Shown: positions 43,991 through 64,000 of the stretch, one piece after another
Layout: each line of letters opens with the position of its first letter
Position numbering within the stretch: the stretch's first letter is position 1
IMG/VR virus record: IMGVR_UViG_3300009183_004565
Length of the DNA stretch: 64,000 nt
From: a virus
Lineage: Duplodnaviria > Caudoviricetes
Strand: one strand, 5' to 3'
The notes under the pieces: model-generated
What the model saw: only the letters and a program-made list of their open reading frames with translations
What the model was told of the DNA's origin: nothing
The model's database searches: none
Translations under genes and position numbers: made by a program

Positions 43991-46651
43991 ATGAGTTACA
44001 TTGACGCCTTGTACGACAGAAATGCAGACCGTATCCACATTGTGGAACGAGTCAACGATGAACGAGTATATCGAGAATATCCAGCCAATCACATATTTTA
44101 CTACGATGACCCACGTGGGAAGTATCGCACCGTATACGGAACTCCAGTAAGTAGATTCTCTAGTCGTTCAAATAAAGAATATCAAAAAGAGTTACGCATT
44201 AACAGTAACAAACGTCTTTGGGAATCGGATATCAATCCTGTATTCCGTTGCCTTGAAGAAAACTATTCTGGAACAACCTCTCCAAAACTACACACGGCAT
44301 TCTTTGACATTGAGGTTGACTTTGATCCAGTAAAAGGATTTAGTAAGCCCGAAGATCCGTTTAATCCAATTACTGCTATTTCCATTTATATGGATTGGTT
44401 GGACAAAATGGTTACATTGGTTATTCCGCCAAAGAGCTATAGTTGGGAGACTGCACAAGAAATTTGCAATCAATTTGATAACTGTTTCTTATTTGAACGT
44501 GAACAAGATCTACTTAGTACATTCTTGGATCTCATTGACGATGCAGATATACTAAGTGGCTGGAACTCAGAAGGCTTTGATATTCCGTACATGACCATGC
44601 GTATTACTCGTGTGTTGAGCAAAGATGATACACGTAGATTCTGTTTGTGGGGGCAACTACCCAAGCAACGTACATTCGAACGCTTTGGTGCAGAGAACTT
44701 GACCTTTGACTTGATTGGTCGTGTGCATATGGACTATATGCAACTGTATCGTAAGTACACATATGAAGAACGTCACAGTTATTCACTTGACGCCATTGGT
44801 GAATATGAACTAGACGAGCGTAAAACACAATACGAAGGTACACTGGATCAACTGTACAACAAAGACTTTCCCGAGTTTATCAAGTATAATCGACAAGATA
44901 CTATGCTTGTTGCCAAACTAGATAAGAAATTACGATTCCTAGATCTAGCCAATGAACTTGCACATGATAATACTGTGCTACTGCCCACTACTATGGGTGC
45001 AGTGGCAGTTACCGAGCAGGCAATTATTAATGAAGCACATCAACGTGGTATGGTAGTACCTAACAGGAAAGGTAGAGATGATCAAGGTGACACGCAAGCG
45101 GCAGGTGCCTATGTTGCTTTTCCCAAAAGGGGCATGCACGACTGGATCGGAGCCATTGACATCAACTCGCTCTATCCCTCGGCTATTAGAGCCCTTAACA
45201 TGGCGCAAGAAAGTATTGTTGGGCAACTCCGACCAATAATGACAGACAAATATATTCAAGATAAAATGACTGCAGGCAGCAGTTTTGCTGATGCCTGGGA
45301 AAACATGTTTGGTAGTCTTGAGTATACTGCGGTAATGGCAGGAGAGCCAGGAACTGAAATTACCGTTGACTGGGAAGCCGGCGGATCGGATGTAATGAGT
45401 GCTGCTGATATATGGAGATTAATCTTTGACTCAAATAAACCTTGGATGCTTAGTGCAAACGGCACAATCTTTAGCTACGAACAAAAAGCCATTGTACCCG
45501 GATTACTGGAACGATGGTACGCGGAACGAAAAGAGCTCCAGGCAAAGAAAAAGGAATCCACAACCGACGAAGACAAAGCCTTCTGGGACAAACGACAACT
45601 TGTCAAGAAGATTAACCTTAACAGTCTCTACGGAGCAATCCTTAATCCTGGATGTAGATTTTTCGACAAAAGGATTGGTCAAAGCACTACTCTCACTGGA
45701 CGAATCATTGCTAGGCACATGGATGCATATATCAATGAGTGCATCATGGGGGAATACGACCATGTGGGCGAAAGCATCATCTATGGAGACACTGACTCAT
45801 GTTATTTTACAGCTTGGCCGGCTATCCGAAGTGAAGTTGAATCAGGACGAATGGAATGGAATAAAGAAATTTGTGCCCAACTGTACGACACCATTGCGGA
45901 ACAAGTTAACGACAGCTTCCCAGCATTTATGGAACGAGCTTGCCATGTGCCGAGGTCTATGGGTGGACTCATTAAAGGTGGTCGCGAACTCGTGGCCTCC
46001 AAAGGGCTCTTTATTAAAAAGAAGCGATATGCAGTCCTCATATATGATCTCGAAGGAGTCAGGCTTGACAGTCATGGCAAGCCCGGCAAGGTCAAGGCTA
46101 TGGGTCTTGACCTAAAGCGTTCAGACACGCCCAAGGTTGTGCAAGACTTCTTGAGTGAACTGTTAACTGCTGTGCTAACTGGTGCAGCACGGGAAGAAAT
46201 ATACGATCGTGTTCGTGAATTTAAAATAGCATTCCAAGACCGACCTGCATGGGAAAAAGGTACACCTAAACGTGTAAACAACTTGACCAAGTATGGCAAA
46301 GAAGAAGAACGTCTAGGCCGTGCTAACATGCCCGGACATGTTCGTGCTGCTCTTAACTGGAACAATCTACGTCGTATGCATGGCGATCAATACAGCTTGG
46401 CCATTGTTGATGGTATGAAAACCATTGTTTGTAAATTAAAAGATAATCCGTTAGGATATACTAGTGTTGGTTATCCCACAGATGAAACTCATATTCCGCA
46501 ATGGTTTAAGGATTTACCTTTTGATGATGGACTCATGGAAGCCACTATTGTAAATCAGAAGGTAGAAAATCTATTAGGTGTACTAGAGTGGGATATTCCC
46601 AATCATACTGATATCAAAACAACATTTGATAGCTTGTTTAGTTTTGAGTAA
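43991..46651 (+). CDS. Family B DNA polymerase with 3'-5' exonuclease (T4 gp43-like)
   Basis: FFDIEV (ExoI), WNSEGFDIPY (ExoII), YN.QD (ExoIII), DINSLYPS, K..LNSLYG, YGDTDS, KKRY. Confidence 0.97.
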   Translation: MSYIDALYDRNADRIHIVERVNDERVYREYPANHIFYYDDPRGKYRTVYGTPVSRFSSRSNKEYQKELRINSNKRLWESDINPVFRCLEENYSGTTSPKLHTAFFDIEVDFDPVKGFSKPEDPFNPITAISIYMDWLDKMVTLVIPPKSYSWETAQEICNQFDNCFLFEREQDLLSTFLDLIDDADILSGWNSEGFDIPYMTMRITRVLSKDDTRRFCLWGQLPKQRTFERFGAENLTFDLIGRVHMDYMQLYRKYTYEERHSYSLDAIGEYELDERKTQYEGTLDQLYNKDFPEFIKYNRQDTMLVAKLDKKLRFLDLANELAHDNTVLLPTTMGAVAVTEQAIINEAHQRGMVVPNRKGRDDQGDTQAAGAYVAFPKRGMHDWIGAIDINSLYPSAIRALNMAQESIVGQLRPIMTDKYIQDKMTAGSSFADAWENMFGSLEYTAVMAGEPGTEITVDWEAGGSDVMSAADIWRLIFDSNKPWMLSANGTIFSYEQKAIVPGLLERWYAERKELQAKKKESTTDEDKAFWDKRQLVKKINLNSLYGAILNPGCRFFDKRIGQSTTLTGRIIARHMDAYINECIMGEYDHVGESIIYGDTDSCYFTAWPAIRSEVESGRMEWNKEICAQLYDTIAEQVNDSFPAFMERACHVPRSMGGLIKGGRELVASKGLFIKKKRYAVLIYDLEGVRLDSHGKPGKVKAMGLDLKRSDTPKVVQDFLSELLTAVLTGAAREEIYDRVREFKIAFQDRPAWEKGTPKRVNNLTKYGKEEERLGRANMPGHVRAALNWNNLRRMHGDQYSLAIVDGMKTIVCKLKDNPLGYTSVGYPTDETHIPQWFKDLPFDDGLMEATIVNQKVENLLGVLEWDIPNHTDIKTTFDSLFSFE

Positions 46652-46657
46652 ATATGA

Positions 46658-47620
46658 ATGTATACAATTATTGATAATGTATGGCATAAATCAATGAAAC
46701 TACATCAACTAGTAGGATTACGAAACGAATTGCAAGAATCAATTGAACTCTCTACGATTCTACAAGGTGTACAAAAAAATCAAGATACGTTAAATCACAT
46801 TATTTTTCAAGCAGACGAAAAGTATGGGCAGAGAATTGCTGACTTGTCCAAAAAGCATGCTCGAGTGATTGAAGTAGTACAAGAAGATTTACAAGAAATT
46901 AAACAGTTAGTTGAAGAGTTAAATGCCGAGATATCTCATGAAACTGCTCGTTTCTTTCATGAAAATTATCAAACAGAATGCATGTTTACAGATCCAAGAG
47001 AGATACGTAATCATAAATTGTTGGAAATGGCCGAAGGCAGCAGAGAAGTATTAGAATCAAGAGTAGGTCTATATTGTGACTGGAAATATGCCACGTTAGA
47101 AATAGGATGCAGGGATGGCGAATGGACCAAAAAACTAATTGCTGCAGATCCATTGTACATTACTGATATCAACGAGGAGTTTCTTATAAGCACTGTTAAT
47201 CAGTTTACCAAGGAATATCAAGCACGACTCCGAAAGTATTTGGTTAAAGATTATCAGATATCTAACTTACCTATAAACCAATTTGGATTTATTTTTAGTT
47301 ACAATTTTTTTAATTATCTAAGCCTAGACAGTATTAAACAATTGTTAATTCAAGCCAACCAATGGTTAAAACCTGGTGGCGTAATGATGTTTACTTATAA
47401 CAATGCCGACATGAGTGCCAGTGCTGGCATGTGTGAAGGTTACTTTATGACCTATGTTCCAAAAAGCATGTTGGCCCCAATGGTAGAAAGTCTAGGGTAC
47501 GAAATAATAAGTGCCCCGGACTATAATCCCTCGACTAGTTGGATTGAAATTAGGAAGCCCGGAATTTTAAAAACTGTCAAAGCTCACCAAGCATTAGGTG
47601 AAATAGTACACAGAGGTTAG
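46658..47620 (+). CDS. SAM-dependent methyltransferase-like protein with N-terminal coiled-coil
   Basis: LEIGCRDG, FIFSYNFFNY, LKPGG. Confidence 0.7.
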   Translation: MYTIIDNVWHKSMKLHQLVGLRNELQESIELSTILQGVQKNQDTLNHIIFQADEKYGQRIADLSKKHARVIEVVQEDLQEIKQLVEELNAEISHETARFFHENYQTECMFTDPREIRNHKLLEMAEGSREVLESRVGLYCDWKYATLEIGCRDGEWTKKLIAADPLYITDINEEFLISTVNQFTKEYQARLRKYLVKDYQISNLPINQFGFIFSYNFFNYLSLDSIKQLLIQANQWLKPGGVMMFTYNNADMSASAGMCEGYFMTYVPKSMLAPMVESLGYEIISAPDYNPSTSWIEIRKPGILKTVKAHQALGEIVHRG

Positions 47621-47673: not shown

Positions 47674-48405
47674 ATGCGAGATTACTTACTCGATATAGTA
47701 TCACACACTCATAGTTTGGGTGTTATTGATTTAGTTAAAATTACCGGTACTGATTCGTTGACTCTTGTTAACGCAGTTGGCGAAGAACGTGTGGCTATTG
47801 TGGAAGCACAATTTCATAATCCTGTTCCAGAGTTTATGGGTACCTTTGGTATGCCTAATCTGGGCAAACTTAATACCATTCTTAATATTCCTGAGTACAA
47901 GGAAGATGCCAAACTGTCTATTATCTCTAAAGACGTCGAAGGTGTCAAGACACCCGAAGGCATTCATTTTGAAAACAAAGAAGGAGATTTTAAAAATAGT
48001 TATCGATTCATGAGTGCCAATGTAGTAAACAACACTTTGCAAACAGTTAAGTTTAAAGGTGTTAAATGGGGAGTAGAAATTGAACCCAGCGTGACTTCGA
48101 TACAGAAACTTCGATTTCAAGCACAAGCCAATAGTGAAGAAACAAGTTTTATTGCCAAAGTTGAAAATGGTAATTTAGTATTCTATTTTGGTGATCATAG
48201 TAGTCATGCTGGTAACTTTGTGTTTGCACACGATGTAGCAGGAACATTGACCAAAGCATGGCATTGGCCAATTGCTGCTGTAATTAGTATTTTGGCATTG
48301 CCTGGTGATAAAATGATTAGATTCAGTGACGAAGGTGCAGCTCAAATTACGGTGGATTCTGGATTAGCCGTTTATAATTATATCTTGCCAGCACAAACCA
48401 AGTGA
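47674..48405 (+). CDS. Putative sliding clamp (gp45/PCNA-like)
   Basis: 243 aa, beta-rich two-part pattern, clamp-sized, near polB, with a clamp loader in the window; no decisive motif. Confidence 0.5.
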   Translation: MRDYLLDIVSHTHSLGVIDLVKITGTDSLTLVNAVGEERVAIVEAQFHNPVPEFMGTFGMPNLGKLNTILNIPEYKEDAKLSIISKDVEGVKTPEGIHFENKEGDFKNSYRFMSANVVNNTLQTVKFKGVKWGVEIEPSVTSIQKLRFQAQANSEETSFIAKVENGNLVFYFGDHSSHAGNFVFAHDVAGTLTKAWHWPIAAVISILALPGDKMIRFSDEGAAQITVDSGLAVYNYILPAQTK

Positions 48406-49668: not shown

Positions 49669-50309
49669 AATTAATAAAATACTGGTACGCGGACTCTCTA
49701 ATAGATCCAGATCAAAAATTTTGGTATCTTCCAATATATAAAAATGCCAGCACTAAGATTACCTCATGTTTAAAAAGAAAGAATTGGGATACACTAATTC
49801 GCACCAATATAATCAACGAAGATAAGTTTGTTAATAAATCTGTGCAATTTGCAATACTTCGCGACCCATACGAGCGTTGGATCTCTACTTATGTTTCTTA
49901 TATTAAAAATCCTATATTTGATCAATCTTCTTTGAATTCTCTGTTAGCATCAAAAAATAAAGATGATTTTGTTGAATTGCTATTTAATCGTGCACCTATT
50001 CAAGAATTTGATATGTATACCAATTTACAATCTGTAGCACTTTTAGATCATCCAGACTTAAAAAAAATTAACTTTTTTTGGCTCAATGGTCAGACTGGAT
50101 ATCAATTAAATAAATGGCTTCAGTCTCATAATGAAATAACATCATTGAATAACAGTATAGAAAACGGGATTGATAAAAAAGACCCACTATACCGAGAAGT
50201 AATTTCTTTTTTATTTAATTACAAGAATCATAAAATTAAAAACAAAATAATGGATTATTTACAACCAGACTACGATTTTATAAGCGGAATTAATTTTTAT
50301 GCAAGATAA
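49665..50309 (+). CDS. Sulfotransferase-family protein 3
   Basis: LPIYKNASTKI and LRDPYERWIS. Confidence 0.75.
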   Translation: MKLIKYWYADSLIDPDQKFWYLPIYKNASTKITSCLKRKNWDTLIRTNIINEDKFVNKSVQFAILRDPYERWISTYVSYIKNPIFDQSSLNSLLASKNKDDFVELLFNRAPIQEFDMYTNLQSVALLDHPDLKKINFFWLNGQTGYQLNKWLQSHNEITSLNNSIENGIDKKDPLYREVISFLFNYKNHKIKNKIMDYLQPDYDFISGINFYAR

Positions 50310-51846
50310 TTTAACAAGTAAACAAAATGATTACGCAGTATTCTTACCTGCTATCTCGGGCTTCTATGCAACTTTTATAGGAAAGCAGCGTGTTAACAAC
50401 GACTATGTTGACCCTGCACGTTTTCCTGTAGGACTAACTGACTTAGAGCAAATGAATTGGCTTAACAGTCAGCAATCTTGGTTTCCGTATCGCTGGAGTT
50501 TGTATTCAGGTGGTCATGCCAATTTGGATTTAACCAAAGACGATCCAAGCGAGGACATGGTTCGTAAACGCGAACCGGGTACATTCATGTTAGGTGACTC
50601 AGGTGGATTCCAAATTGCCAAGGGTTTATGGGAAGGTGATTGGAAAGCCAACTCAGGTTGCCCCAAGGCTCAAGGTAAACGCGAAGCGGTACTTAAATGG
50701 CTGGATGGCATTGCTGATTACGGCATGATTCTTGATATACCTACCTGGGTAACTAAAGATCCCAAGGCCAGCGCCGCCTGTCAAATCAAAACAGTTCCTG
50801 AAGCTATTGCAGCAACAAAGTTTAACAATGAATACTTTATTGCAAACAGAAAAGGCAAAGACAACGGTGGTGCCAAGTTCTTAAATGTGTTACAAGGTTC
50901 TACACACACCAATGCAGAATCTTGGTATCAAGAAATGAAAAAGTATTGCGATCCTGCACAGTATCCTGGCAAACACTTTGATGGGTGGGCAATGGGCGGA
51001 CAGAACATGTGTGATGTACATTTAATCCTAAAGCGATTGATTGCATTACGTTACGACAATTTACTACAAGAAGGTGTTCATGATTGGATGCACTTCTTGG
51101 GTACTTCAAAACTAGAGTGGGCATTACTACTCACAGATATACAGAGATCAATACGCCGATATGTTAACCCTTCTTTTACTATTTCCTTTGACTGTGCTAG
51201 TCCTTTCCTTGCTACGGCGAATGGACAAGTCTACCACGAAATTGACCTTACCCCAGGACAAAAATGGTCCTATAGAATGAATCCCAGTGCCGACGATAAA
51301 AAATATTCCACAGATACTCGCAGTTACAAAGACGGCACTATACAAGACGGTTTCTGGAAACATTTTGACGAAAGTCCGATTAGCCAACGTTTACAAATGA
51401 AAGATATTTGTATATATAAACCCGGCGACCTAAATAAGAATGGCAAGGAAGGCAAGACTTCTTGGGATAGTTTCAGTTATGCATTGCTAATGGGGCATAA
51501 CGTATGGACGCACATTGAATCAGTTCAACGTGCCAATCGTGAATATGATGCCGGCAACTATCCTGCTATGATGCAGTATAGTGGCCCCGGACAAGATAAG
51601 TTTAAAGATATCATTGATAGTATTTTTGCTGCGCCTGACAAACAAACAGCACTTGATATCGTTGAACATTATAGTAAGTATTGGATGGAAATTGTTGGCA
51701 CTAGAGGCAACAAAGGTAAAAAAGCGTTGAATTCTGAAACAATGATGGATGTGCATTTTGAATTAGAAGGCAGTAGTGTTAAAGTAGAGAAGTCCAAGAA
51801 AGAAAAACCCTTGGCAATTTTAAATCCAGATCTTTTTGAGGTATAA
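50299..51846 (+). CDS. dpdA: TGT-superfamily guanine transglycosylase, DpdA-like (DNA-acting inferred)
   Basis: MLGDSGGFQI, MILDIP, NVLQG, GWAMGG, HFLG, FDCASP, MGHN are TGT catalytic/binding motifs; the CxCxxC Zn motif of tRNA TGTs is not visible; folE/queD/queE nearby. Confidence 0.8.
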   Translation: MQDNLTSKQNDYAVFLPAISGFYATFIGKQRVNNDYVDPARFPVGLTDLEQMNWLNSQQSWFPYRWSLYSGGHANLDLTKDDPSEDMVRKREPGTFMLGDSGGFQIAKGLWEGDWKANSGCPKAQGKREAVLKWLDGIADYGMILDIPTWVTKDPKASAACQIKTVPEAIAATKFNNEYFIANRKGKDNGGAKFLNVLQGSTHTNAESWYQEMKKYCDPAQYPGKHFDGWAMGGQNMCDVHLILKRLIALRYDNLLQEGVHDWMHFLGTSKLEWALLLTDIQRSIRRYVNPSFTISFDCASPFLATANGQVYHEIDLTPGQKWSYRMNPSADDKKYSTDTRSYKDGTIQDGFWKHFDESPISQRLQMKDICIYKPGDLNKNGKEGKTSWDSFSYALLMGHNVWTHIESVQRANREYDAGNYPAMMQYSGPGQDKFKDIIDSIFAAPDKQTALDIVEHYSKYWMEIVGTRGNKGKKALNSETMMDVHFELEGSSVKVEKSKKEKPLAILNPDLFEV

Positions 51847-52053
51847 ATGTACAAAGCTAAAATTAAACAACTTGAAGAATCTCATCGTGTGTTAAACAAA
51901 CAGATAGACGACATGGAACGTAATCATCCTCATGTTGAAGTTGATCGACTTGCTGAAATGAAAAAGAAAAAACTACTTGTTAAAGACGAAATCAGCCGTC
52001 TTAATAAGTTACAATGGGATCACGATCATGAAACGGTACACGGCGATGAATAG
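51847..52053 (+). CDS. DUF465/YdcH-like small coiled-coil protein
   Basis: L...H..L..QI..........L..MKKKKL..KDEI..L. Confidence 0.75.
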   Translation: MYKAKIKQLEESHRVLNKQIDDMERNHPHVEVDRLAEMKKKKLLVKDEISRLNKLQWDHDHETVHGDE

Positions 52054-52555
52054 AAACGGACATAACAATGCAAGCCTTTTTGTAGGCACTGAAGTAGAAC
52101 ATACACCTGCATTTGATTTAAAGACACTATTTGTTGTTGATATACAATCTATAGAATTAATCGAAGCCGCATACCTTGCACATAAATGCGAACACATATA
52201 CTTTGGTGCTAATCAAAGTTTTGCACCCAACGGTACTGCTAATTATTTTACTTTATGGGAAGAAATGATTACCCATTTTCTTAAGAAAGATCGTTTGTGT
52301 ACGTTGGATTTTGATGTATCCCATGTTGAATATGTATTGGAATATGGGTTCACCGAATATCATAATTTTATCCCAATGATTTCGGTTAAATTGCCCTATA
52401 TACAACAATTAGGATATAATGCTATAATTAAGCTCGACGATAAAGATTTTAATGCAACCAATCCTGGTGTATGGTGTCATAGTGTACACAAGTTACAAAA
52501 TCGTCGAGTGTTCACTGACTGGTCTAAATACACCAAAGACGAGATTATTAAATGA
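52046..52555 (+). CDS. Conserved phage protein of unknown function in the deazaguanine locus
   Basis: F.G.EVEHTPA...KTLFV, HIYFGANQSF, K.DD.DF.ATNPGVWCH. Confidence 0.6.
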   Translation: MNRNGHNNASLFVGTEVEHTPAFDLKTLFVVDIQSIELIEAAYLAHKCEHIYFGANQSFAPNGTANYFTLWEEMITHFLKKDRLCTLDFDVSHVEYVLEYGFTEYHNFIPMISVKLPYIQQLGYNAIIKLDDKDFNATNPGVWCHSVHKLQNRRVFTDWSKYTKDEIIK

Positions 52556-52980
52556 ATCAAGAACAAAGACAAACAGCAGATAGAATTATAGAACGTGCCG
52601 AAAGACAAATTTGGGTAACTTTTAGGCGCGAAGGTATCCATAAATACCCAGCAGCATTGGAGGAACCACAACTTGCGGATGTATCTTTTCTTGGCTATCC
52701 TCATCGCCATATCTTTCATTTCCGGGTGTCAATTGATGTGTTCCACAATGACCGGGACATCGAATTCATCCAATTCAAACGCTGGCTCGAAGGGCTGTAT
52801 AGTGCTAGTACACTCATTTTAGATTATAAAAGTTGCGAAATGATTGCTGATGACTTATATGTCCAAATTGCTAGTAAATTTCCCGGACGTAATGTTATAA
52901 TCAACGTGAGTGAAGACGGCGAAAATGGCTGTACTATCACTTACAATACACACCAACCTTATCAATCAATGAAAATTTAA
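52552..52980 (+). CDS. QueD-like T-fold protein (DpdL-like candidate)
   Basis: EGIH.YP, LGYPHRHIFHF (LxxxHRHxF), EF, SCEMIA, VSEDGENG. Confidence 0.6.
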   Translation: MNQEQRQTADRIIERAERQIWVTFRREGIHKYPAALEEPQLADVSFLGYPHRHIFHFRVSIDVFHNDRDIEFIQFKRWLEGLYSASTLILDYKSCEMIADDLYVQIASKFPGRNVIINVSEDGENGCTITYNTHQPYQSMKI

Positions 52981-52981: not shown

Positions 52982-53356
52982 ATGGTTAAAGCTCCTCCAT
53001 GTATAGTATTAGGGTGCGGAAGATCTTCTTCTTACATTAATAGAAACCAAGATGGCACAAAAAAATATCGAAATACCTGTAGCAAACATCATAAAACGAA
53101 TTTAAACATGTCTAAAAAAGATTATTGCGAAAATATTGATGGTCGCCTTGGATTTAAATGTACCACTACTATCTTAGGTCCGTATCAATTACAAGTAGAT
53201 CACGTTGACGGAGATCGTTACAATAACGATCCAAAAAATCTTCAGACTTTGTGTGCTTGTTGTCACGCTCATAAAACGCATAAAGAAAAAAATCATCTTA
53301 GACGTTACAATAAAAAAATACAAACTACATTTAATTCAATTTTCAACTTTCAATAA
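52982..53356 (+). mobile_element. Free-standing HNH endonuclease gene (putative homing endonuclease)
   Basis: QVDHVDGD..NN...NLQTLCACCH..KT; N-terminal C...C...C.KH zinc motif. Confidence 0.8.
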
Positions 53357-53373: not shown

Positions 53374-54297
53374 ATGCCCCGAGTAAAAAAGTCTGCTGCA
53401 CTAGATGCCGAGCACGAAAAACTCATTGCGGTTTTAAAGTTTACACCACGTACCTATAAAATTTCATTGTGGGGATATGGTGGCGAATCTGTTATGGGTA
53501 CCGTACCTCGCGAAATCTACGATTACTTTAAACAGCGTAGACTTGATGTTAGTGGCTTTGCATGGGACAGCGACTACGCCGAAGAAAACAATATTCCCGA
53601 AGCGATGTGGCCATTCTCTCCTGGTTCATGGTACGAGTGTGATGATATAGCACATGTCAATGGTGTTGTATTAGATAGTGGCACTGTACACATTGAAGAT
53701 GAAAACGGTGACGAAATTCTCCAGTGTGGGATTGATGCTTTCCAAGACGAAGACTGTCCTGAATTAGATTACACAGACGAAACCTTTATTGACGATAAGC
53801 CGCCAGGCACTATAGTATTCATTGGCAACAGTAACGAAAAAGGTACGTTCTTTGAAGGCAGTATTGATCTTAGTGCCCCGTTTGATATCAACAAACTAAC
53901 TTTCAAAATTGAAGACGTAGACGGCAGTGAAGTTGTCTGCGGAATAGAATACGACGGCGAGTCGATTGATAACTATGGTGGCGATACCACTGGCAAGAGT
54001 TCAGAATTTGGATTCTATGTTGCAGGATCAATGAAGAATGGTAAGTGGGAACGTTATCGTAACGAAGATGATTGCACTTACGAAATGACTGCATGGTTTC
54101 CAAAAAACACCAAACCTGTGCGCGAAGGTGTTTATGAAATTGATGCAGGTAATAAAGAAAAATGGCCAAACTTTAGTCCAACTACAGCACGATGGACAGG
54201 CACACGATGGCTCAGTGTCTGGGCAGATGACACTCCCGAAACACCAGAAGTAAAAATAAAACAATGGCGTGGCATTGCCTACGATCCAAACAACTAA
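53374..54297 (+). CDS. Acidic hypothetical protein
   Basis: 307 aa, AAGGAG RBS. Confidence 0.65.
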   Translation: MPRVKKSAALDAEHEKLIAVLKFTPRTYKISLWGYGGESVMGTVPREIYDYFKQRRLDVSGFAWDSDYAEENNIPEAMWPFSPGSWYECDDIAHVNGVVLDSGTVHIEDENGDEILQCGIDAFQDEDCPELDYTDETFIDDKPPGTIVFIGNSNEKGTFFEGSIDLSAPFDINKLTFKIEDVDGSEVVCGIEYDGESIDNYGGDTTGKSSEFGFYVAGSMKNGKWERYRNEDDCTYEMTAWFPKNTKPVREGVYEIDAGNKEKWPNFSPTTARWTGTRWLSVWADDTPETPEVKIKQWRGIAYDPNN

Positions 54298-54542: not shown

Positions 54543-55088
54543 ATGAACGTTTTAACTTACGATCATGTACTCCCAACTTGGTTAGAGGAGTCTGGAGAAA
54601 ATCAGTTCTATAGATTTCCTTTAGAATATAATCATCGCACAAAAGATGAAAATCCTCCATTTTTTGGTAAGTGTCTATACAACAAAAAAACAGGAGTATA
54701 TGTTCAATCTCCTTATTTTGTAGATGCTTTGTGTGATTGTATTAGGTATGACCTTGTGAATAAAATTGACCCAAGTGCAACATTCAATGAATTTCAAAGA
54801 GTGATTGTAAACGGGCAGATAGGTGGTATGTCTCCTGGTAGACATCCTGACTATGATGATCGTAATATGTGGACTGCTGTTTATTTCCTGTTAGGAAATT
54901 CAGGAGACCTAGTATTTTATCTTGATAACACTACTAAGAAGATCAAGTTTAGAAAACATAGATTGGTAGTGTTTAATAGTCGTATAGAACACGAAGCACT
55001 AGCACCCAATGAAGGTGATTGGAGAATGAGCATTGGTATCAATTGGTATATGGATACCAAATTTAATGAAATTGTAAAAGGAAAATAA
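54543..55088 (+). CDS. 2OG-Fe(II) oxygenase
   Basis: HPD (HxD), TAVYFL...SG.L.F, LVVFNSRIEHEA (distal H), RMSI (2OG-binding R). Confidence 0.8.
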   Translation: MNVLTYDHVLPTWLEESGENQFYRFPLEYNHRTKDENPPFFGKCLYNKKTGVYVQSPYFVDALCDCIRYDLVNKIDPSATFNEFQRVIVNGQIGGMSPGRHPDYDDRNMWTAVYFLLGNSGDLVFYLDNTTKKIKFRKHRLVVFNSRIEHEALAPNEGDWRMSIGINWYMDTKFNEIVKGK

Positions 55089-56281
55089 TGCGTAAATTAT
55101 GGTATATGGGTCTAGAACCCTATAAAGCACGATACACTCTACAGTTACAAGAGTGGAATCGTGCTGTATTTGACCGCCGTGGCATCAACTACGAAATAGT
55201 AGAAGGCGAAACGCTAAGTAACGACCAAGCCATTGTAACCGGACAAGTGCTAGATGCACATGGTCGTACATACTTTGGTATGAGCCAACTGATGAATCTT
55301 GTTCGCAAGATGAAAGCAGGAGAAGTTACCAATGAAGATGTTGTATACTTCGAAGACATGTTTCAACCTGGTATCGAGAGCTTGCCTTATATCATGCAGC
55401 AGTGCGATCCTGCTATGCGTCCCAAGATTGCTGTTCGTTGTCTTGCACAAAGCATTGACCCAGATGACTTTGTTCATGTCTGGGGCATGCAACAGTGGAT
55501 GGGGCATTATGAAAAGATGGTAGATAGTTTTGCCGATATCGTTCTTGCCAGTAACGAAGAAATGGTTATGCACATGAAGGTTGCAGGATGGCAGGCTCCT
55601 GTGTATAATATTAGTGGACTGGCATTTGGCAAAGAGGAAGTACGTGGTCGTGTGGCCGGTGCACTAAAGCCATTCCATGGTCGTAAGTATCGTGTGGGAT
55701 TTGCTGCCCGATGGGATCAAGAGAAGCAACCAGACTTTTACATGGATCTAATAGAAGAATATCACCGTCGTGCCAGTTTTGTGTTTAATGATTGGCCCAA
55801 TGTTGAGTTCTGCGTATTCAGTGGCAGTAAACTAAAAAGCAATAACGACAGTTACATGGCTCGTACTCGACGTATGCAGGCTGAAGGTAAACTTGTCGTT
55901 CATGAGGACTTGGAAAAAAATGATTATTATAATTTACTCAATGATACTCGTGTGTTATTCAATTGCGCTTTACAAGACTGGGTTAGTAACACTGTCAGCG
56001 AAGCCGACACTCTGGGATGTAATGTGTTATATCCCGCATATCGTAGTTTTCCTGAGTCTTTTGCTAACGATCATGAAAGACTTTACATTCCTTGGAGTAT
56101 AGATGACGCAATTACTAAACTTAATAAGCTATTGGAGCATCCTCATCCCGGTATGGGCACCATTAGTGATTGGACTGGGGGTACCATTGATCGCATTGTG
56201 GACATTCTAGAAGGCAAGGGCGAACAGTGGCAGCGCATGAGTACCGACTATCGTAAACATACACACGAGCACAAGTATTAA
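55088..56281 (+). CDS. GT-B fold glycosyltransferase
   Basis: FAARWDQEKQP, K.DYY..L....V.FN.ALQDWVS....EA...GC..LYP.YRSFPE. Confidence 0.75.
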   Translation: MRKLWYMGLEPYKARYTLQLQEWNRAVFDRRGINYEIVEGETLSNDQAIVTGQVLDAHGRTYFGMSQLMNLVRKMKAGEVTNEDVVYFEDMFQPGIESLPYIMQQCDPAMRPKIAVRCLAQSIDPDDFVHVWGMQQWMGHYEKMVDSFADIVLASNEEMVMHMKVAGWQAPVYNISGLAFGKEEVRGRVAGALKPFHGRKYRVGFAARWDQEKQPDFYMDLIEEYHRRASFVFNDWPNVEFCVFSGSKLKSNNDSYMARTRRMQAEGKLVVHEDLEKNDYYNLLNDTRVLFNCALQDWVSNTVSEADTLGCNVLYPAYRSFPESFANDHERLYIPWSIDDAITKLNKLLEHPHPGMGTISDWTGGTIDRIVDILEGKGEQWQRMSTDYRKHTHEHKY

Positions 56282-57255
56282 TGAAAATAGTTATCACAGG
56301 AGGATGTGGCTACATTGGTAGTCACATCGCACGAGCACTAAAACAACACAATGCAGATAATTGTGTATACATTATTGACCGTGTGCGTAGAGATCATACA
56401 CTTCAAGATGTAGACGGCTACCTACACGAAGATTATGCCAGCAAGAACAGTTTGCTATGGATTACGGAACTAGAACCTGATGTTATTGTGCATTGTGCAG
56501 GCAGCAGTCTTGTTGGCGAGAGTATGACCAATCCTGCTGAGTATTATGAAAACAATATTGCAAAGACTATTACTCTATTGTCGCATGTAAAAGATCTACG
56601 TAAGAAACCTTTGATACTGTTTAGTAGTAGTGCCAGTGTGTACGGCAATCCTGCGACTGTTCCGGTATATGAGTCAGATCCCAAACTGCCTATCAGTCCA
56701 TATGGTGTTAGCAAACATGTTACTGAACGACTATTAAGTGACTATCATGCAGCATACGGTGTTCCTAGTGTGTGCTTTAGATATTTTAATGCAGCCGGAG
56801 CAGAACCTTTTGCACATGACCTTGGGCAAGCACCTGGTGCCAGTCATATCGTTGCTAGAATACTAGAAGCCAAACTTGCTGGGAAATCGTTTACGCTTAA
56901 TGGTGCAGATTATAACACACCGGATCGTACTTGTATTCGTGATTACATACACGTATGGGATTTGGCTGACGCACACATACGTGCCATTGAGTGGATGAAC
57001 AATGAGAATGAGAAACGTGCTGCAGTGATGAATCTTGGTACTCAACATGGTATTAGCAATCAAGAGATTATTGATTATGTAACAGTAAACTACGGTGGCA
57101 TTGATGTTGTAGTTGGGCCAAGGCGCCCCGGAGATCCAGATCGACTTGTTGCTGATGCAAGTGTAGCATATGCTTTATTAAAATGGAAACCTGTCTACTC
57201 AACGATCAATCAAATTGTTGATAGTGCATACAAATGGTATACTCGTGAGCTTTGA
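56281..57255 (+). CDS. galE: UDP-glucose 4-epimerase
   Basis: TGGCGYIGSH, SSSASVYG, PYGVSK (YxxxK), FRYFNAAG, RDYIHV.DLA.AH, R.GD. Confidence 0.9.
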   Translation: MKIVITGGCGYIGSHIARALKQHNADNCVYIIDRVRRDHTLQDVDGYLHEDYASKNSLLWITELEPDVIVHCAGSSLVGESMTNPAEYYENNIAKTITLLSHVKDLRKKPLILFSSSASVYGNPATVPVYESDPKLPISPYGVSKHVTERLLSDYHAAYGVPSVCFRYFNAAGAEPFAHDLGQAPGASHIVARILEAKLAGKSFTLNGADYNTPDRTCIRDYIHVWDLADAHIRAIEWMNNENEKRAAVMNLGTQHGISNQEIIDYVTVNYGGIDVVVGPRRPGDPDRLVADASVAYALLKWKPVYSTINQIVDSAYKWYTREL

Positions 57256-57829
57256 TCGCATATTGGAGTTTGAACAAGCACTGGCCGAATACACAGGTGC
57301 GCCATACGCAATCATGACTGATTGTTGTACTCATGCTATTGAGTTGTGTCTAAGATTTCAAAAGCCCACTCATTGTGCATTTACTGCTTTTACCTATCTG
57401 TCTGTGCCAATGACCATGCACAAACTAGGAATTGAGTACAGATTGATTCCCGAAGTATGGACTGGCGAATATCAATTCCACGGAACCACAATTTGGGATA
57501 GCGCACGTAGGCTAGAGCGAGGAATGTATCGAGCAGGACAGATGCAATGTCTCAGCTTCGGTTACACTAAGCCTTTACAAATAGGCCGTGGTGGTGCTAT
57601 ACTGTTAGACAATGAACAAGCATACAACACTATAACGGAACAACGATATGATGGGCGCAAATTATCAGTTACACCCTGGCAGGAACAAAAAACCTTCATG
57701 GTGGGCTATCATTATAGACCGACTCCGGAAGAAGCTGCGATTGGATTAATAAAATTGCGCGATGTTAATGAACTGCCTAAATATCACGAATATCCTGATC
57801 TAAGAGATATTAAAATTATTGGAGAATAA
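57245..57829 (+). CDS. Short DegT/DnrJ-family PLP aminotransferase-like protein
   Basis: FE..LAEY.GA.YA....CCTHA, P..Y.S.P, WDSA, CLSFG..KPL..G.GGAIL, A.IGL.KL; only about 194 aa. Confidence 0.7.
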   Translation: MSFDRILEFEQALAEYTGAPYAIMTDCCTHAIELCLRFQKPTHCAFTAFTYLSVPMTMHKLGIEYRLIPEVWTGEYQFHGTTIWDSARRLERGMYRAGQMQCLSFGYTKPLQIGRGGAILLDNEQAYNTITEQRYDGRKLSVTPWQEQKTFMVGYHYRPTPEEAAIGLIKLRDVNELPKYHEYPDLRDIKIIGE

Positions 57830-57830
57830 G

Positions 57831-58661
57831 TTGACCACAAAAGAATTTACACCAAATCCAGTATTAAACGAAACACCTGATAAAGAATTTGTTCCTATGG
57901 AACTGGAATCTATGTATGTGGCTTTACCACAAAAGGTATATGTGAAAGCTGGCGAAGCTGCTGCCGCTAAACAATCATATTTGTCGGATGCTATTCGTGC
58001 CAGGATGAAACGTGACGGTAAAAGATACTGGGCAGGAGATAACATCAGTGACTATCTAGCGGACAGTGACAAAGAACATCTAATCAGCGAAGCCGCAGAA
58101 GCATTTGAACTAGTACTAGACCGTTTGCTGATTGATCGCGAAAATGATCCTAACAGTCGAGGTACAGCACGACGCCTGGCTAAAATGTACTTCAACGAAA
58201 TAATGGCAGGTAGATATGAAACGGCACCAGACGCAACGGCTTTTCCAAATGATTCGGAGGAAAGATATGAAGGTATGCTTGTGGTTAGAAGTGAACTTCG
58301 CAGTATGTGTAGCCATCATCACCAGCCCGTTACTGGTGTTGCTTATATTGGTATTATCGCCGCTAATAAACTTATCGGTCTTAGTAAGTATACTCGTATT
58401 GCTCAGTGGTGCGCTCGTCGTGGCACACTACAAGAAGAGCTGTGTAATGATATCGCTAGAGAGATTATGAAGGCCACTGATGCTAAAGATGTAGCAGTAT
58501 ATGTACAAGCGATACATGGATGTTGCGAAAATCGCGGCATTATGGCACATAGTTCGTTAACTCAAACTACAGTATTAAAGGGAACATTCAAAGATGATCC
58601 TCATACTAAGAAGGAATTCTTCGACAACATTAAACTACAACAAGAATTTGCACCAAGGTAA
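57831..58661 (+). CDS. folE: GTP cyclohydrolase I with N-terminal extension
   Basis: TARRLAKMY, SMCSHHHQP, GLSKY.RI, QE.L...I, HGCC..RG, KEF; TTG 57831 follows GGAGA. Confidence 0.95.
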   Translation: MTTKEFTPNPVLNETPDKEFVPMELESMYVALPQKVYVKAGEAAAAKQSYLSDAIRARMKRDGKRYWAGDNISDYLADSDKEHLISEAAEAFELVLDRLLIDRENDPNSRGTARRLAKMYFNEIMAGRYETAPDATAFPNDSEERYEGMLVVRSELRSMCSHHHQPVTGVAYIGIIAANKLIGLSKYTRIAQWCARRGTLQEELCNDIAREIMKATDAKDVAVYVQAIHGCCENRGIMAHSSLTQTTVLKGTFKDDPHTKKEFFDNIKLQQEFAPR

Positions 58662-58701: not shown

Positions 58702-59031
58702 ATGTCAGACGAACAAGAAGAGTTTAAAAAAAAATTACAAGCCCTAAAGCCCAAAAAAAAGAAGTTAGCCGTTCCTGAAGGTTTCTTAGACGATGCTAAA
58801 AGTTACGAAGGCAAATTAGAAGCTGTTAAAATAATCTCAGAGCGAGAAAAAGATCGAGTTATTTTGATATTTAAAAAAATGATTGCACAAGGTAAAGAAG
58901 ATGCAATACGTATTGAACGAGAAAAACTAGAAGCTAAACGAGCAGCTGAAGCTAAAGAAGCATTAGAAAGAGCAGCAAAGATAGCAAAAGAAAAGTTAGC
59001 CAAAAAATCATTATTTGGTAAAAAGAAGTAA
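58702..59031 (+). CDS. Highly charged hypothetical protein
   Basis: 109 aa, Lys/Glu/Ala-rich coiled-coil. Confidence 0.65.
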   Translation: MSDEQEEFKKKLQALKPKKKKLAVPEGFLDDAKSYEGKLEAVKIISEREKDRVILIFKKMIAQGKEDAIRIEREKLEAKRAAEAKEALERAAKIAKEKLAKKSLFGKKK

Positions 59032-59049
59032 ATTCAATTAATCAAGGAG

Positions 59050-59244
59050 ATGTATATGAAACTCAACGACAAGCTAGTAAAATGCAACGATCATTTTACT
59101 GTCTATATGTACGACAATGGCTATATGGTTGAAATTGGTGGACGTGACGACAACGACGAATGGGTTACTGCCAAAGTTCTTTGCACAGATTTTAAAGAAC
59201 TAACCAATCTTATCGAAGAAGCTACCATAATGGAACGTGACTAA
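59050..59244 (+). CDS. Small hypothetical protein
   Basis: AAGGAG RBS; 64 aa. Confidence 0.65.
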   Translation: MYMKLNDKLVKCNDHFTVYMYDNGYMVEIGGRDDNDEWVTAKVLCTDFKELTNLIEEATIMERD

Positions 59245-59777
59245 TGAAAAAGTTAATTATCTCGGATGCTGAATTTAAAAAATTAGTTCACAAGCTCTGC
59301 AGAGATATTGCCAATAGCGATTGGCGACCTGACTATGTTGTAGGTTTAACTCGTGGTGGACTTACTGCTGCTGCCATGATCAGTCATTATTTTGATGTTC
59401 CTATGGAAACATTGAAGCCAAGATCGGAAAGCAATTGCTGGATGGCTGAAGATGCATTTGGATATATTCCAGACGGTCCGCTACGTGAAGGCATAGATAA
59501 ACGCAGTGACGCTACATTTAAAAAGAAAATTCTTGTTGTCGATGACATTAACGATACCGGTTCTACACTTGAATGGATACGTGAAGATTGGCAATCAAGT
59601 TGTTTGCCCAACGACGAATCTTGGAAATATGTATGGAACAAGAACGTGCGTTTTGCTGTATTAATCAATAACGAATCCAGTAACTATGAGCATGTGGATT
59701 ATTCAGGTCGTAACATTAATAAACTTGATGATCCGTGTTGGGTAGTGTTCCCCTGGGAAAATTGGTGGGAGGCATGA
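59244..59777 (+). CDS. Type I phosphoribosyltransferase (Gpt-like)
   Basis: YVVGLTRGGL, ILVVDDINDTGSTL (PRPP loop), WVVFPWE. Confidence 0.9.
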   Translation: MKKLIISDAEFKKLVHKLCRDIANSDWRPDYVVGLTRGGLTAAAMISHYFDVPMETLKPRSESNCWMAEDAFGYIPDGPLREGIDKRSDATFKKKILVVDDINDTGSTLEWIREDWQSSCLPNDESWKYVWNKNVRFAVLINNESSNYEHVDYSGRNINKLDDPCWVVFPWENWWEA

Positions 59778-60112
59778 TTGCCTTACCGCCAGGCTGTACT
59801 GTTACCTATGCTGTTTGGGTCGATGTAAATCGACTCACCAACGAAATGGTTGAATGGTATCGTCAAGTTGATGGCAAGGTTTACGAAGATCGTTGGTATG
59901 ATACTCGAGGTAGAGAACAAACAGTAAACTACGTGAGTTATGGCAAGAGCAAACGATGCCATCATCATCACAACGGTCAAGGTGGTACTAGGTTACACTT
60001 CCACGGTGATGATGCTAGTGCGGCCAGTATGTTTATATTAAAGTTTTTCAATCACGTAACTAGTAATAATTTACAAGACGTAATGGAACGTCATGCTCAC
60101 GAGGTTGACTAA
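59774..60112 (+). CDS. Hypothetical protein
   Basis: ATG 59774 after GGAGG, ATGA-coupled. Confidence 0.6.
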   Translation: MIALPPGCTVTYAVWVDVNRLTNEMVEWYRQVDGKVYEDRWYDTRGREQTVNYVSYGKSKRCHHHHNGQGGTRLHFHGDDASAASMFILKFFNHVTSNNLQDVMERHAHEVD

Positions 60113-60119
60113 GTAAATT

Positions 60120-62187: not shown

Positions 62188-62198
62188 TAAATACTGTT

Positions 62199-62280
62199 CT
62201 ACACAGCGGCCTTTCTGGCATTCATCCCGCTTTACAAATTCTGCAAGCCTATGCTAAAATCTTAACATAGGAGAAAAACA
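62199..62280 (+). promoter_or_regulatory. Structured 5' leader of queD (riboswitch candidate)
   Basis: TAAATA 62188-93; AGCGG(62205-09)/CCGCT(62227-31); CCTATG(62248-53)/CATAGG(62266-71) covering AGGAG (62269-73). Confidence 0.5.
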
Positions 62281-62778
62281 ATGCAACCTGTTGTATATAA
62301 ATTTACTAGTACCAAAGAGTATCACGACGCCTTTCCTTGCGCTTACCGGCAATGGCGTGCCGATAGTCATTGTAATCTAATACACGGCTATTCATTTAGT
62401 ATGAAGTTCTACTTTGGTACTAACGACTTAGACGTTCGTAATTGGGCAGCTGACTACGGTGGACTTAAAGAACTTAAAAAGATTCTTGAAGATCAATTTG
62501 ACCACACATTAATTGTAGCCGAGGACGATCCCGAACTTGCAACATTTAAGTTGTTACAAGAACGGAACATGGCCAAGATTGTCATACTACCACGTTTAGG
62601 CTGTGAAGGCCTAGCTGACTCGCTGTACAAATATGTGAATGGTGTTTATATTCCTGATATGTGGGGACCTAGTGAAGCTGAACGCTTATGGTGTTATCGT
62701 GTAGAGGTTAGAGAGACACAAGCAAACATGGCGTACCGAGAAGGTCACCGTGAATGGAACGAGGATCTGTTTGCGTAA
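62281..62778 (+). CDS. queD: 6-carboxy-5,6,7,8-tetrahydropterin synthase
   Basis: FPCAYRQW...SHC..IHGY, DYG.LK...K.LE..FDH, GCE.LA, V.V.ET. Confidence 0.88.
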   Translation: MQPVVYKFTSTKEYHDAFPCAYRQWRADSHCNLIHGYSFSMKFYFGTNDLDVRNWAADYGGLKELKKILEDQFDHTLIVAEDDPELATFKLLQERNMAKIVILPRLGCEGLADSLYKYVNGVYIPDMWGPSEAERLWCYRVEVRETQANMAYREGHREWNEDLFA

Positions 62779-63592
62779 GTTCGTTATACGATGTGCCCGG
62801 AATCCGGATGGTCAAGAATTCTTAGACTTAGAATTCAATATTCGTCCGGGCTCTTACTCCGGCAAATGGATAGACTGCATACGTAGTGTGGAACACTTAC
62901 CTCCACATCAATACGGATTTCCCAAATGGCTAGAACACGATGCCGGTGTATACGAGCAACGTATTGCAGATGCATTAAACAACAACACAGATATACAAGA
63001 GTTTTTATTAGACTCTAACATTGATAGAACCGTGATCAATCAAGACTTGGTCAATGCTGTCCATAGATATATTGAGCACAATCATCAACATGCCGCCGAA
63101 CATCTTGTGTTACACAATGACATACATTACTTAGAAAGTATTTGGGAAGGTGCAACTGATGTTGTGTTCAAGAAGTTACAGTGGGTACCACCAGGGCTAA
63201 TAATTGACATGACCTTGGATGACTATAAAGAATTTACTACAGAACCATGCACTAACTTTATACAAGACGATTTTAGTCATGTAGGACGTAGTCCACATAA
63301 CAGTTACCTATATCAAGATGACTCCAGTCTGTACACTAGTTGTGTTATACAACATAAAGTTGGTTCAGGTGCTAAATGGTTTATTCCTGATGATAGTCAT
63401 ATCTTTAAGGACGAACGTGGATTCAGATCGTGGGTCAGTGAACATCAAGCGTTTTTTAAAAAGCAATGGGCGATAGAAACTAATAACGATCCTAGGCTTT
63501 GTTTTGGCCGTATTATTATTGCCGAAGGTGTGGAAGATTATAGTCGGATTGATAGGACATTTGACTTCGTAGTAAAAGCTTTTATTATCTAA
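62750..63592 (+). CDS. Hypothetical protein, paralogous to 41368-42237
   Basis: Shared motifs with the 41368 ORF; exact start uncertain. Confidence 0.55.
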   Translation: MNGTRICLRKFVIRCARNPDGQEFLDLEFNIRPGSYSGKWIDCIRSVEHLPPHQYGFPKWLEHDAGVYEQRIADALNNNTDIQEFLLDSNIDRTVINQDLVNAVHRYIEHNHQHAAEHLVLHNDIHYLESIWEGATDVVFKKLQWVPPGLIIDMTLDDYKEFTTEPCTNFIQDDFSHVGRSPHNSYLYQDDSSLYTSCVIQHKVGSGAKWFIPDDSHIFKDERGFRSWVSEHQAFFKKQWAIETNNDPRLCFGRIIIAEGVEDYSRIDRTFDFVVKAFII

Positions 63593-63613
63593 ATATTTGT
63601 AGTATAATACATT

Positions 63614-64000
63614 ATGTCAAAAATTAAAATTGCAGAGCTGTTTTACAGCATACAAGGAGAAGGTCGTTACATGGGTGTGCCTAGTGTGTTCTTGCGAACA
63701 TTTGGGTGTAACTTTAAATGTGCCGGCTTTGGTATGCCTCGAGGACAATTAAGTACAGAGGCAGATTTGGTTGATCCGGAAAAATATAAATTCTACGATA
63801 AACTACCTTTAGTTAGCACAGGTTGCGATAGTTACGCTAGTTGGGATCCAAGATTTAAAGATCTTAGTCCCATGCTCGAAAGCGATGCTATTGCGGATCG
63901 TATCATGGAGATATTGCCTTTTAACGAGTGGCGAGATGAACACTTGGTTATTACAGGTGGAGAACCTTTACTAGGGTGGCAACGTGCTTATCCGGACTTG
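63614..64000 (+). CDS. queE: 7-carboxy-7-deazaguanine synthase (radical SAM), partial, runs off the window
   Basis: Not in the ORF track because it has no stop. My translation: MSKIKIAELFYSIQGEGRYMGVPSVFLRTFGCNFKC...GCDSYASW...HLVITGGEPLL. Confidence 0.92.
   Translation, partial: MSKIKIAELFYSIQGEGRYMGVPSVFLRTFGCNFKCAGFGMPRGQLSTEADLVDPEKYKFYDKLPLVSTGCDSYASWDPRFKDLSPMLESDAIADRIMEILPFNEWRDEHLVITGGEPLLGWQRAYPDL

Follow-up and report, generated by a model that had tools for sequence, protein, structure and literature searches.

Does the 7-deazaguanine locus carried by the caudoviricete virus IMGVR_UViG_3300009183_004565 produce a base that is already known from phage DNA, or is this base further decorated by the enzymes whose genes are interleaved with those of the pathway? 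The stretch of DNA analysed here (the window, 64,000 nucleotides) corresponds, on the reverse strand, to bases 47073-111072 of an IMG/VR viral contig of 144,478 bp; the completeness of this contig is 41% according to CheckV, from which a genome size of about 350 kb follows. The locus (positions 43991-64000) constitutes the module for DNA replication and modification in a jumbo phage of freshwater, whose backbone is related to that of Pseudomonas phage PA5oct; freshwater and lake metagenome assemblies (Logan contigs) contain sequences that are near-identical to the stretch. Judging from the genes, the core of the pathway matches the QueC-less route to 2'-deoxy-7-deazaguanosine (dDG) of Cellulophaga phage phiST, and is not new. 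The new point is the association of a glycosyltransferase (GT) with DpdL, one of the proteins of this route, which on genomic grounds ties the GT functionally to the pathway. We favor the reading in which the product of a dDG pathway undergoes further glycosylation; a glycosylated 7-deazaguanine is plausible, and we put the probability of this reading at about 0.5.

The original prediction, based on the letters alone, had described one co-directional run of genes downstream of polB, and each of these genes is present, within 43991-64000, on the + strand (all features below are on this strand unless otherwise stated). They are densely packed, with several stop/start overlaps. Gene identities were assigned from Pfam, NCBIfam and PHROGs, by reading motifs, with hhalign, and by comparing fold models (AlphaFold/AF2) with the PDB using Foldseek.

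The enzymes of the first steps are recognized by homology. GTP cyclohydrolase I, FolE (57819..58661; Pfam 139 bits), has an N-terminal extension. QueD, the 6-carboxytetrahydropterin (CPH4) synthase, is encoded at 62281..62778 (Pfam PTPS 53 bits); its motif is CxxxHGY and not the canonical CxxxHGH, a variant that the window shares with the QueD of ACP17, phiST and BUCT-ZZ01, which are all DpdL-type phages. The window contains the 5' part of the gene of QueE, the 7-carboxy-7-deazaguanine (CDG) synthase (63614..64000; Pfam; 48% identity to the QueE of BUCT-ZZ01); the whole gene codes for 280 amino acids (aa) and its last 456 nucleotides are beyond the window end. According to their families, FolE, QueD and QueE would convert GTP into CDG.

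The second T-fold protein mentioned in the original prediction is present as well (52552..52980), and we identify it as DpdL, a QueD-like T-fold protein that is proposed to be a CDG decarboxylase, on the basis of its signature motif and of its homology to the ACP17 and phiST proteins. The published signature of DpdL, LxxxHRHxF, takes the place of the CxxxHGH of QueD (PMC10516641); the window protein has LGYPHRHIF at residue 47, and is 57% identical to the DpdL of ACP17 (gp125) and 35% identical to that of phiST (CGPG_00067). DpdL has been linked to the complete replacement of G by dDG in phiST, but its decarboxylase activity is only proposed: the expression in E. coli of dpdA and dpdL from ACP17 and phiST gave no dDG, after which Cui et al. 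2023 considered that additional enzymes are possibly needed (PMC10516641).

QueC was found neither in the window, nor in the whole 144-kb contig, nor in a relative whose genome is complete (337 kb, terminal repeats included); the original prediction had noted that the gene is outside the window, and the search past position 64000 does not reveal it. Two PP-loop matches were ruled out as QueC, namely NadE in the complete relative and a 403-aa non-QueC protein in the contig. The gene of the latter (PP-loop SGGGDS) is upstream of the window and adjoins an acetamidase/formamidase-like gene and a short-chain dehydrogenase gene (contig 121997-125095), which is unusual cargo for a phage. The absence of queC is not a gap in the pathway, because the DpdL-type dDG route works without QueC (PMC10516641). 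In this genome too, DpdL co-occurs with FolE, QueD, QueE and DpdA without QueC. With DpdL but without QueC, the base would most likely be decarboxylated to 7-deazaguanine by DpdL, as can be surmised from the work of Cui et al. 2023 (PMC10516641).

The TGT/DpdA-like gene of the original prediction (50299..51846) codes for a divergent DNA transglycosylase of 515 aa with the fold of the tRNA-guanine transglycosylases (TGT); its motif and its fold matches identify it, despite the absence of a Pfam match (discussed below). The sequence DSGGFQ (residues 100-105), which corresponds to the catalytic Asp motif DSGG(F/L)Q, is invariant in 16 relatives and aligns with DSGGLQ in ACP17 gp123. When the model is compared to the PDB, all of the top 50 Foldseek matches are tRNA-guanine transglycosylases (best E 5e-6); searching the PDB by sequence gave no match. 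The comparison with DpdA3 of ACP17 (gp123) by hhalign gives a probability of 66% (E 5.5e-5), against 0.35% for the TGT of Xanthomonas phage BUDD, and a hidden Markov model built from the DpdA-like proteins of the lineage matches neither of the two. The homologues in PA5oct and in Vibrio phage 2.275.O adjoin deazaguanine genes, those of QueE in the former and of QueF, YhhQ, QueC, Gat and FolE in the latter. We propose that this DpdA-like enzyme would swap guanine for 7-deazaguanine in DNA after replication; 7-deazaguanine insertion was concluded to be post-replicative in all known cases (Cui et al., PMC10516641).

The locus can therefore be read, as the original prediction did, as a 7-deazaguanine DNA-modification module made of FolE, QueD, QueE, DpdL and a TGT-fold DpdA, but this module is of an already known kind, the DpdL-type dDG route (PMC10516641). 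It has in common with the phiST system the QueD variant CxxxHGY, the LxxxHRHxF motif of DpdL, FolE, QueE, a TGT-fold DpdA, the lack of QueC and the adjacent DNA polymerase. It differs from it in that its DpdA is longer and belongs to a very divergent subfamily, common to PA5oct and Vibrio phage 2.275.O, and in that its conserved block includes the GT, a UDP-glucose 4-epimerase (GalE), a DegT-like protein, a phosphoribosyltransferase (PRTase) and a protein that we call u192, none of which is found in phiST.

The purine PRTase (59244..59777; XPRT/HGPRT-like; Pfam Pribosyltran 43 bits, and NCBIfam) probably recycles the guanine that is released by the exchange. Another scenario is that it acts at the nucleotide level, by ribosylating CDG, which would then be decarboxylated so that 7-deaza-dGTP is incorporated by the DNA polymerase, the TGT-like protein having another role; this compares with the TubE-type chemistry of tubercidin biosynthesis. 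The PRTase is conserved in the cluster of this lineage and has homologues in those of PA5oct (gp163) and BUCT-ZZ01, and one relative has an IMPDH/GMP-reductase gene in its cluster, which is in favor of this scenario. On the contrary, the PRTase has no homologue in the clusters of ACP17 and BUDD, the TGT-fold protein is always present, and the insertion of the base is post-replicative wherever it is known, so that we consider this nucleotide-level route to be extremely improbable.

Regarding the genes that have no counterpart in phiST, the comparison of relatives is informative. IMG/VR contains over 590 relatives of the DpdA-like protein; we mapped every window protein on the loci of the best 80 (72-86% identical), and the counts given below as fractions of 80 refer to the presence of homologues at these loci. 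A block is conserved in about 80 relatives, in the order DpdA-(DUF465)-u192-DpdL-u72-GT-GalE-short DegT-FolE...PRTase-u125-QueD...QueE. Across the relatives, the median identity is 75% for the GT, 76% for DpdA and 80% for FolE, so that the GT is as conserved as these two enzymes. The GC content of the conserved genes is 39-44%, compared to 28-34% for the sulfotransferases, the HNH endonuclease, the 2-oxoglutarate (2OG) oxygenase, u189 and the radical SAM enzyme.

The GT (55088..56281, 397 aa) is a GT-B enzyme of the GT4-like type. Its AF2 model (pLDDT 78, pTM 0.79) has the two Rossmann domains of the GT-B fold, and Foldseek matches it with a probability of 1.0 to GlgM, glycogen synthase, WaaG, PimA, MshA and BshA. 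As a possible counterpart of the EX7E-type nucleotide-sugar motif, the window protein has D297-x7-E305, and PA5oct gp167 has E-x7-E at the aligned site. The Pfam score of the window protein is below the cut-off (Glyco_trans_1_2, 21 bits vs 25), the homologue in the complete relative reaches 26.8 bits against a cut-off of 26.4, and distant homologues carry PF00534; searching the PDB with a sequence profile of the GT gave nothing useful.

This GT adjoins DpdL in about 80 close relatives, and the same association is observed well outside the lineage. Searching 50,697 cultured-phage records with tblastn returned GT homologues in just five, all of them inside DpdL-type deazaguanine clusters. The order of the genes is DpdL-GT in cyanophage BUCT-ZZ01, whose GT is 63% identical to that of the window, DpdA3-GT-DpdL in ACP17, and GT-TGT-DpdL in the Xanthomonas phages BUDD and X1. 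In PA5oct, gp167 is GT-like (hhalign 97.5%) and is encoded between the DpdA-like gene and dpdL; profile methods add the GT-DpdL pairs of BCSR5 and Phosso. The family amounts to 794 clusters at 50% identity, and among seven distant metagenomic homologues that we sampled (29-35% identity), six adjoin DpdL, QueD, QueE or FolE on other backbones, some of the polA-UDG type, the seventh being on a 2.8-kb contig that is uninformative either way. The reverse situation is that of Vibrio phage 2.275.O, where a DpdA-like gene is accompanied by QueC and QueF, DpdL and the GT both being missing (its gene 469 was rejected as a GT homologue, with an hhalign probability of 0.1%); this is why we conclude that the GT is tied to DpdL and not to a subtype of DpdA. 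The literature on phage deazaguanine that we searched makes no mention of this GT; Cui et al. 2023, in particular, do not mention the one that lies between DpdA3 and DpdL in ACP17 (PMC10516641).

We note four observations about these neighborhoods. One of the distant metagenomic phages encodes DpdL as the N-terminal portion of a fusion protein of 378 aa, whose gene directly precedes that of the GT (L099:6820-7956). The cluster of BUCT-ZZ01 holds a second GT (447 aa). The 63% identity between the GT of this phage and that of the window suggests that exchange occurred between freshwater cyanophages and this jumbo lineage. In Rhizobium phage RHph_I1_18, dpdL is followed, in the place of the GT, by the gene of a macro-domain (Appr-1-p processing) protein.

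In the genome of PA5oct (Wroclawvirus), the gp162-gp173 region shares the backbone order of the window: polB, gp170, the DpdA-like gp168, the GT-like gp167, DpdL gp166, the short epimerase-like gp164, PRTase gp163, QueE gp162, then a 5'-3' exonuclease and an AAA ATPase, which also come after QueE in the backbone of our lineage. The two DpdA-like proteins are only 34% identical, and the block of PA5oct contains no FolE, QueD, GalE, DegT, sulfotransferase, 2OG oxygenase or B12 radical SAM enzyme. The DNA of PA5oct resists restriction enzymes that have G in their sites, but the modified G is chemically undefined (PMC12191111).

The sugar donor could be provided by the neighboring genes. GalE (56281..57255) reaches 288.1 bits for NCBIfam TIGR01179, whose equivalog cut-off is 262.3; it follows the GT in 48/80 relatives, the two genes being adjacent and coupled here and their pairing conserved in relatives. 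Next to it, a short DegT-like pyridoxal phosphate (PLP) enzyme of 204 aa (57215..57829; Pfam DegT 67 bits) has the PLP-lysine motif SFGYTK. Full-length DegT proteins have about 360 aa, but short forms (205-225 aa) are also found in relatives, so that the window protein appears to be a conserved compact form and not a fragment. The GT, with UDP-galactose made by GalE, or perhaps with an amino sugar produced with the help of the DegT-like enzyme, would most likely attach the sugar onto deazaguanine-bearing DNA or onto a precursor. Of the sugar enzymes that the original prediction placed in the pathway, the GT would thus belong to it across very different backbones, and GalE and the DegT-like protein within this lineage. 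The survey of synteny that it had suggested, on whether these three genes travel with dpdA, gives an answer that differs from one gene to the other: the GT follows DpdL, not the subtype of DpdA, and the other two are conserved within the lineage.

Several points weigh against the glycosylation of the base. Unsubstituted 7-deazaguanine has no hydroxyl group that could be O-glycosylated, therefore the sugar would have to be attached in another way, for instance through a C- or an N-linkage, and the literature that we searched reports no such glycosylated 7-deazaguanine DNA nucleoside. DNA measurements exist for a single DpdL phage, phiST, and show plain dDG (PMC10516641); phiST has no GT homologue, and neither in this phage nor in RHph_I1_18 is the GT present within 7-8 kb of DpdL. 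The model of the DpdA-like protein is of moderate quality overall (pLDDT 64), residues 122-370 forming a good core, and Pfam TGT (PF01702) gives no match for the window protein and a single one among 16 relatives, at E 0.048. The region is a hotspot that tolerates the insertion of unrelated cargo: in relatives, slots of the cluster hold Bax1-I, SbtA, an FG-GAP protein, IMPDH/GMP reductase, UDP-glucose dehydrogenase and, in some of them, SPASM and B12 radical SAM enzymes. Last, a second sugar module is encoded on the - strand about 17 kb past the window end (~80667-83329 in window-extended numbering, L002:672-3334), with a 323-aa epimerase/dehydratase of the short-chain dehydrogenase/reductase (SDR) type, a strong match to the 2OG-Fe(II) oxygenases (196 aa) and a DegT of full length (374 aa); another GT1-family gene is found elsewhere in the genome, and relatives carry two or three full-length DegT genes. 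GalE and DegT may therefore serve other glycans and, since the region accepts unrelated insertions, position inside the cluster is not by itself evidence that a gene belongs to the pathway.

A rival explanation of these facts would be that the final base is plain dDG, as in phiST, and that the GT, GalE, the DegT-like protein and the sulfotransferases are auxiliary glycan genes acting on the host surface polysaccharide, on virion proteins or on another target that is not DNA. The variable slots, the second epimerase-2OG-DegT module with the second GT, and the sporadic, low-GC sulfotransferases (see below) all agree with it, as does the fact that the dDG of phiST carries no sugar (PMC10516641); Iyer et al. 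2021, moreover, interpret the GT clusters of jumbo phages as modifiers of surface polysaccharides (PMC7824862). What this explanation does not account for is that the GT family is found only inside DpdL-type clusters, and this on T4-like, PA5oct-like and polA/UDG-type backbones. We regard it as rather unlikely.

The GT could also belong to the pathway without decorating DNA, if it glycosylated a free base or a nucleotide intermediate, or if it were an accessory factor for making or inserting 7-deazaguanine. This would explain the absence of dDG when only dpdA and dpdL were expressed in E. coli (PMC10516641). The top structural matches of the GT include GT4 enzymes that act on small molecules (MshA, BshA, GlgM, OtsA), and u192 travels with DpdL and the GT, both of which would also fit; but phiST makes dDG without the GT, and a sugar on N9 would presumably block insertion by DpdA. 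A role of this kind seems to us distinctly unlikely, and a GT that transfers a sugar onto the 7-deazaguanine of DNA, or its precursor, is still the reading that we prefer.

The other tailoring enzymes of the window are a different matter. Three tandem paralogues resemble 3'-phosphoadenosine 5'-phosphosulfate (PAPS)-type sulfotransferases (48402-49046, 49018-49668 and 49665-50309); two of them give 31.2 and 22.1 bits for Sulfotransfer_2 (cut-off 22), the third being assigned by paralogy, and all three keep both PAPS-binding motifs (5'-PSB, 3'-PB) in the form KNAS(S/T) and RxPxERWxS. They form a low-GC island (28-30%), occur in about 35/80 relatives in 0 to 3 copies, and are absent from the complete relative; no homologue was found in cultured phages. 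An APS-kinase-like gene is present in 3/3 large contigs that have sulfotransferases, compared to 1/7 of those that do not. It codes for an APS-kinase-like P-loop domain fused to DUF2061 (~87034-88034 in window-extended numbering, - strand; L003:15967-16967). This co-occurrence suggests that PAPS is really used, but not that DNA is the substrate. The same gene adjoins that of a 122-aa HxGH cytidylyltransferase-like protein, and the pair may supply the phage with PAPS.

The 2OG-Fe(II) oxygenase-like gene (54543..55088; PF13640 E 7e-5, below the gathering score) is translationally coupled to the GT gene and has a GC content of 34%; it is found in 0/80 relatives, and in phages it resembles only generic 2OG genes of cyanophages, which are not linked to deazaguanine. 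The segment 60120..62187 codes for u189 and for a class-B (B12-type) radical SAM enzyme (Radical_SAM 60 bits, over its cut-off, motif CVRKCTYC of the type CxxxCxxC); the score for B12 binding is 21.7 bits, below the cut-off of 32.1, and the NCBIfam subfamily matches are all far below their cut-offs. The radical SAM enzyme occurs in 3/80 relatives, in another position and with 30% identity, and u189 in 0/80; the GC content of these genes is 29-31%. An HNH endonuclease (52982..53356; Pfam HNH_3/HNH; 1/80 relatives; GC 32%) is probably a homing insertion, and u280 (62750..63592) is absent from the 80 relatives despite an ordinary GC content (39%), with no paralogue in the contig according to tblastn.

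The original prediction had seen in these genes enzymes that may further decorate the base; in the full version of this idea, hydroxylation, glycosylation, addition of an amino sugar, sulfation and radical methylation would take place in series and lead to a multiply decorated 7-deazaguanine. The translational coupling of the genes 2OG-GT-GalE-DegT-FolE by stop/start overlaps agrees with this idea, and so do the intact PAPS-binding motifs, the distribution of the APS-kinase-like gene, and the recurrence of other B12 and SPASM radical SAM genes in the module of some relatives. But the low counts in the relatives, the low GC content of all these genes except u280, the generic nature of the 2OG homologues and the complete relative that does without sulfotransferases, together with the unrelated cargo that occupies slots elsewhere, argue against the involvement of the sulfotransferases, the oxygenase and the radical SAM enzyme. 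There is thus weak support for a base that is sulfated, hydroxylated or methylated, and a full series of tailoring steps appears highly improbable; the sulfotransferases, the 2OG oxygenase, the radical SAM enzyme, the HNH endonuclease, u189 and u280 are in our reading recent, strain-specific insertions, and any role of theirs in the chemistry of the base is hypothetical.

Glycosylation alone has precedents in other systems, with which the comparison is instructive. The alpha- and beta-glucosyltransferases of T4 and the 5mYOX/TET-GT-epimerase clusters also combine a GT-B enzyme and a sugar epimerase in a replication module, with BshA and MshA as structural neighbors. In the case of experimentally validated phage GT-B DNA glycosyltransferases, the nearest solved structures are indeed BshA and MshA, and many of these enzymes need a neighboring epimerase for their donor (bioRxiv 10.1101/2023.12.21.572611). 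But the window phage has no source of hydroxymethyl-pyrimidine (dCMP/dUMP hydroxymethylase, TET or C5 methyltransferase), and its GT is linked to DpdL, hence to a purine analogue. A hydroxymethyl-pyrimidine target was rejected, considering that ThyA is canonical, that relatives use ThyX and that no TET/JBP was found; the Tet_JBP search gave no match, although its control likewise matched nowhere. The type of thymidylate synthase was swapped within the lineage, close relatives having ThyX and this genome a eukaryote-like ThyA (contig 31603-32511, with dihydrofolate reductase (DHFR) adjoining); the second SDR-2OG-DegT module comes directly after these DHFR and ThyA genes. The glycosylated queuosines of animal tRNA, galQ and manQ, are another parallel, in which a 7-deazaguanine derivative in a nucleic acid receives a hexose from a dedicated glycosyltransferase (PMC12518689). 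They differ in being found in RNA, not DNA, and in having the sugar on the cyclopentenediol side chain, which is impossible here without QueC and the later enzymes of the queuosine pathway.

The remaining genes complete the description of the locus. The family B DNA polymerase PolB (43991..46651; Pfam DNA_pol_B 111 bits and an exo domain) anchors the replication module and is syntenic with the polymerase of PA5oct. It is followed by a class I SAM methyltransferase whose N-terminus is coiled (46658..47620; Methyltransf_12/25/11/23), present in 61/80 relatives with a median identity of just 37%, and by a phrog_12062 protein (47674..48405) homologous to PA5oct gp170, whose counterpart in Phosso carries a sliding-clamp annotation. 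Between DpdA and the GT are found a small DUF465 protein (51847..52053; Pfam; 37/80), u192 (52028..52555; 50/80), the acidic u307 (53374..54297; 11/80, usually after the GT, in a variable position), for which the Pfam and PHROGs searches gave no family, and u72 (54320..54538; 58/80), which always separates DpdL from the GT. As a conserved partner of these two proteins, u192 has homologues that travel with them in the same way in ACP17 (gp122) and in two metagenomic loci (L102, L112); comparing it to the ESM Atlas gave no usable match. Further downstream, the small proteins u109 (lysine-rich) and u64 (58702..59244) are partly conserved, and the His-rich u125 (59735..60112) follows the PRTase in relatives. 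A preQ1 riboswitch ahead of queD (intergenic region 62188-62283) was considered and rejected, since Rfam gave no match over 43000-64000 at E<=1, and the 20-kb region had no megablast match among cultured phages. As for the cargo of the relatives, SbtA, Bax1-I, IMPDH/GMP reductase and UDP-glucose dehydrogenase are located at L018:19482-20444, L016:12427-13194, L032:14747-15904 and L061:10469-11662; SbtA transports bicarbonate, a hint that the host may be a cyanobacterium.

If the locus does not glycosylate its base, it is an ordinary member of the dDG pathways, set amid cargo genes. To our knowledge, the 7-deazaguanine marks of phages all bear small C7 substituents, and the DNA bases that are known to be glycosylated are pyrimidines: 5-hydroxymethylcytosine (hmC), 5-hydroxymethyluracil (hmU) and 5-hydroxycytosine. 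A sugar on a DNA 7-deazapurine would thus be new chemistry, and the likely C- or N-linkage would be unusual, since the base has no hydroxyl group. It would add a layer of anti-restriction camouflage, and might account for the failure to obtain dDG in E. coli with dpdA and dpdL alone. A broader view, possible but doubtful, is that the GT-DpdL pair defines a widespread and unreported class of modification, with a sugar on DNA 7-deazaguanine (here a galactose-type hexose, possibly aminated) in PA5oct, ACP17, BUCT-ZZ01, BUDD/X1, BCSR5, Phosso and thousands of freshwater jumbo phages, and that in the present phage this sugar is also sulfated by the three sulfotransferases, in which case it would be the first sulfated DNA base. 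The GT-DpdL pair, in any event, is also carried by cultured phages, including PA5oct, which is a candidate for therapy.

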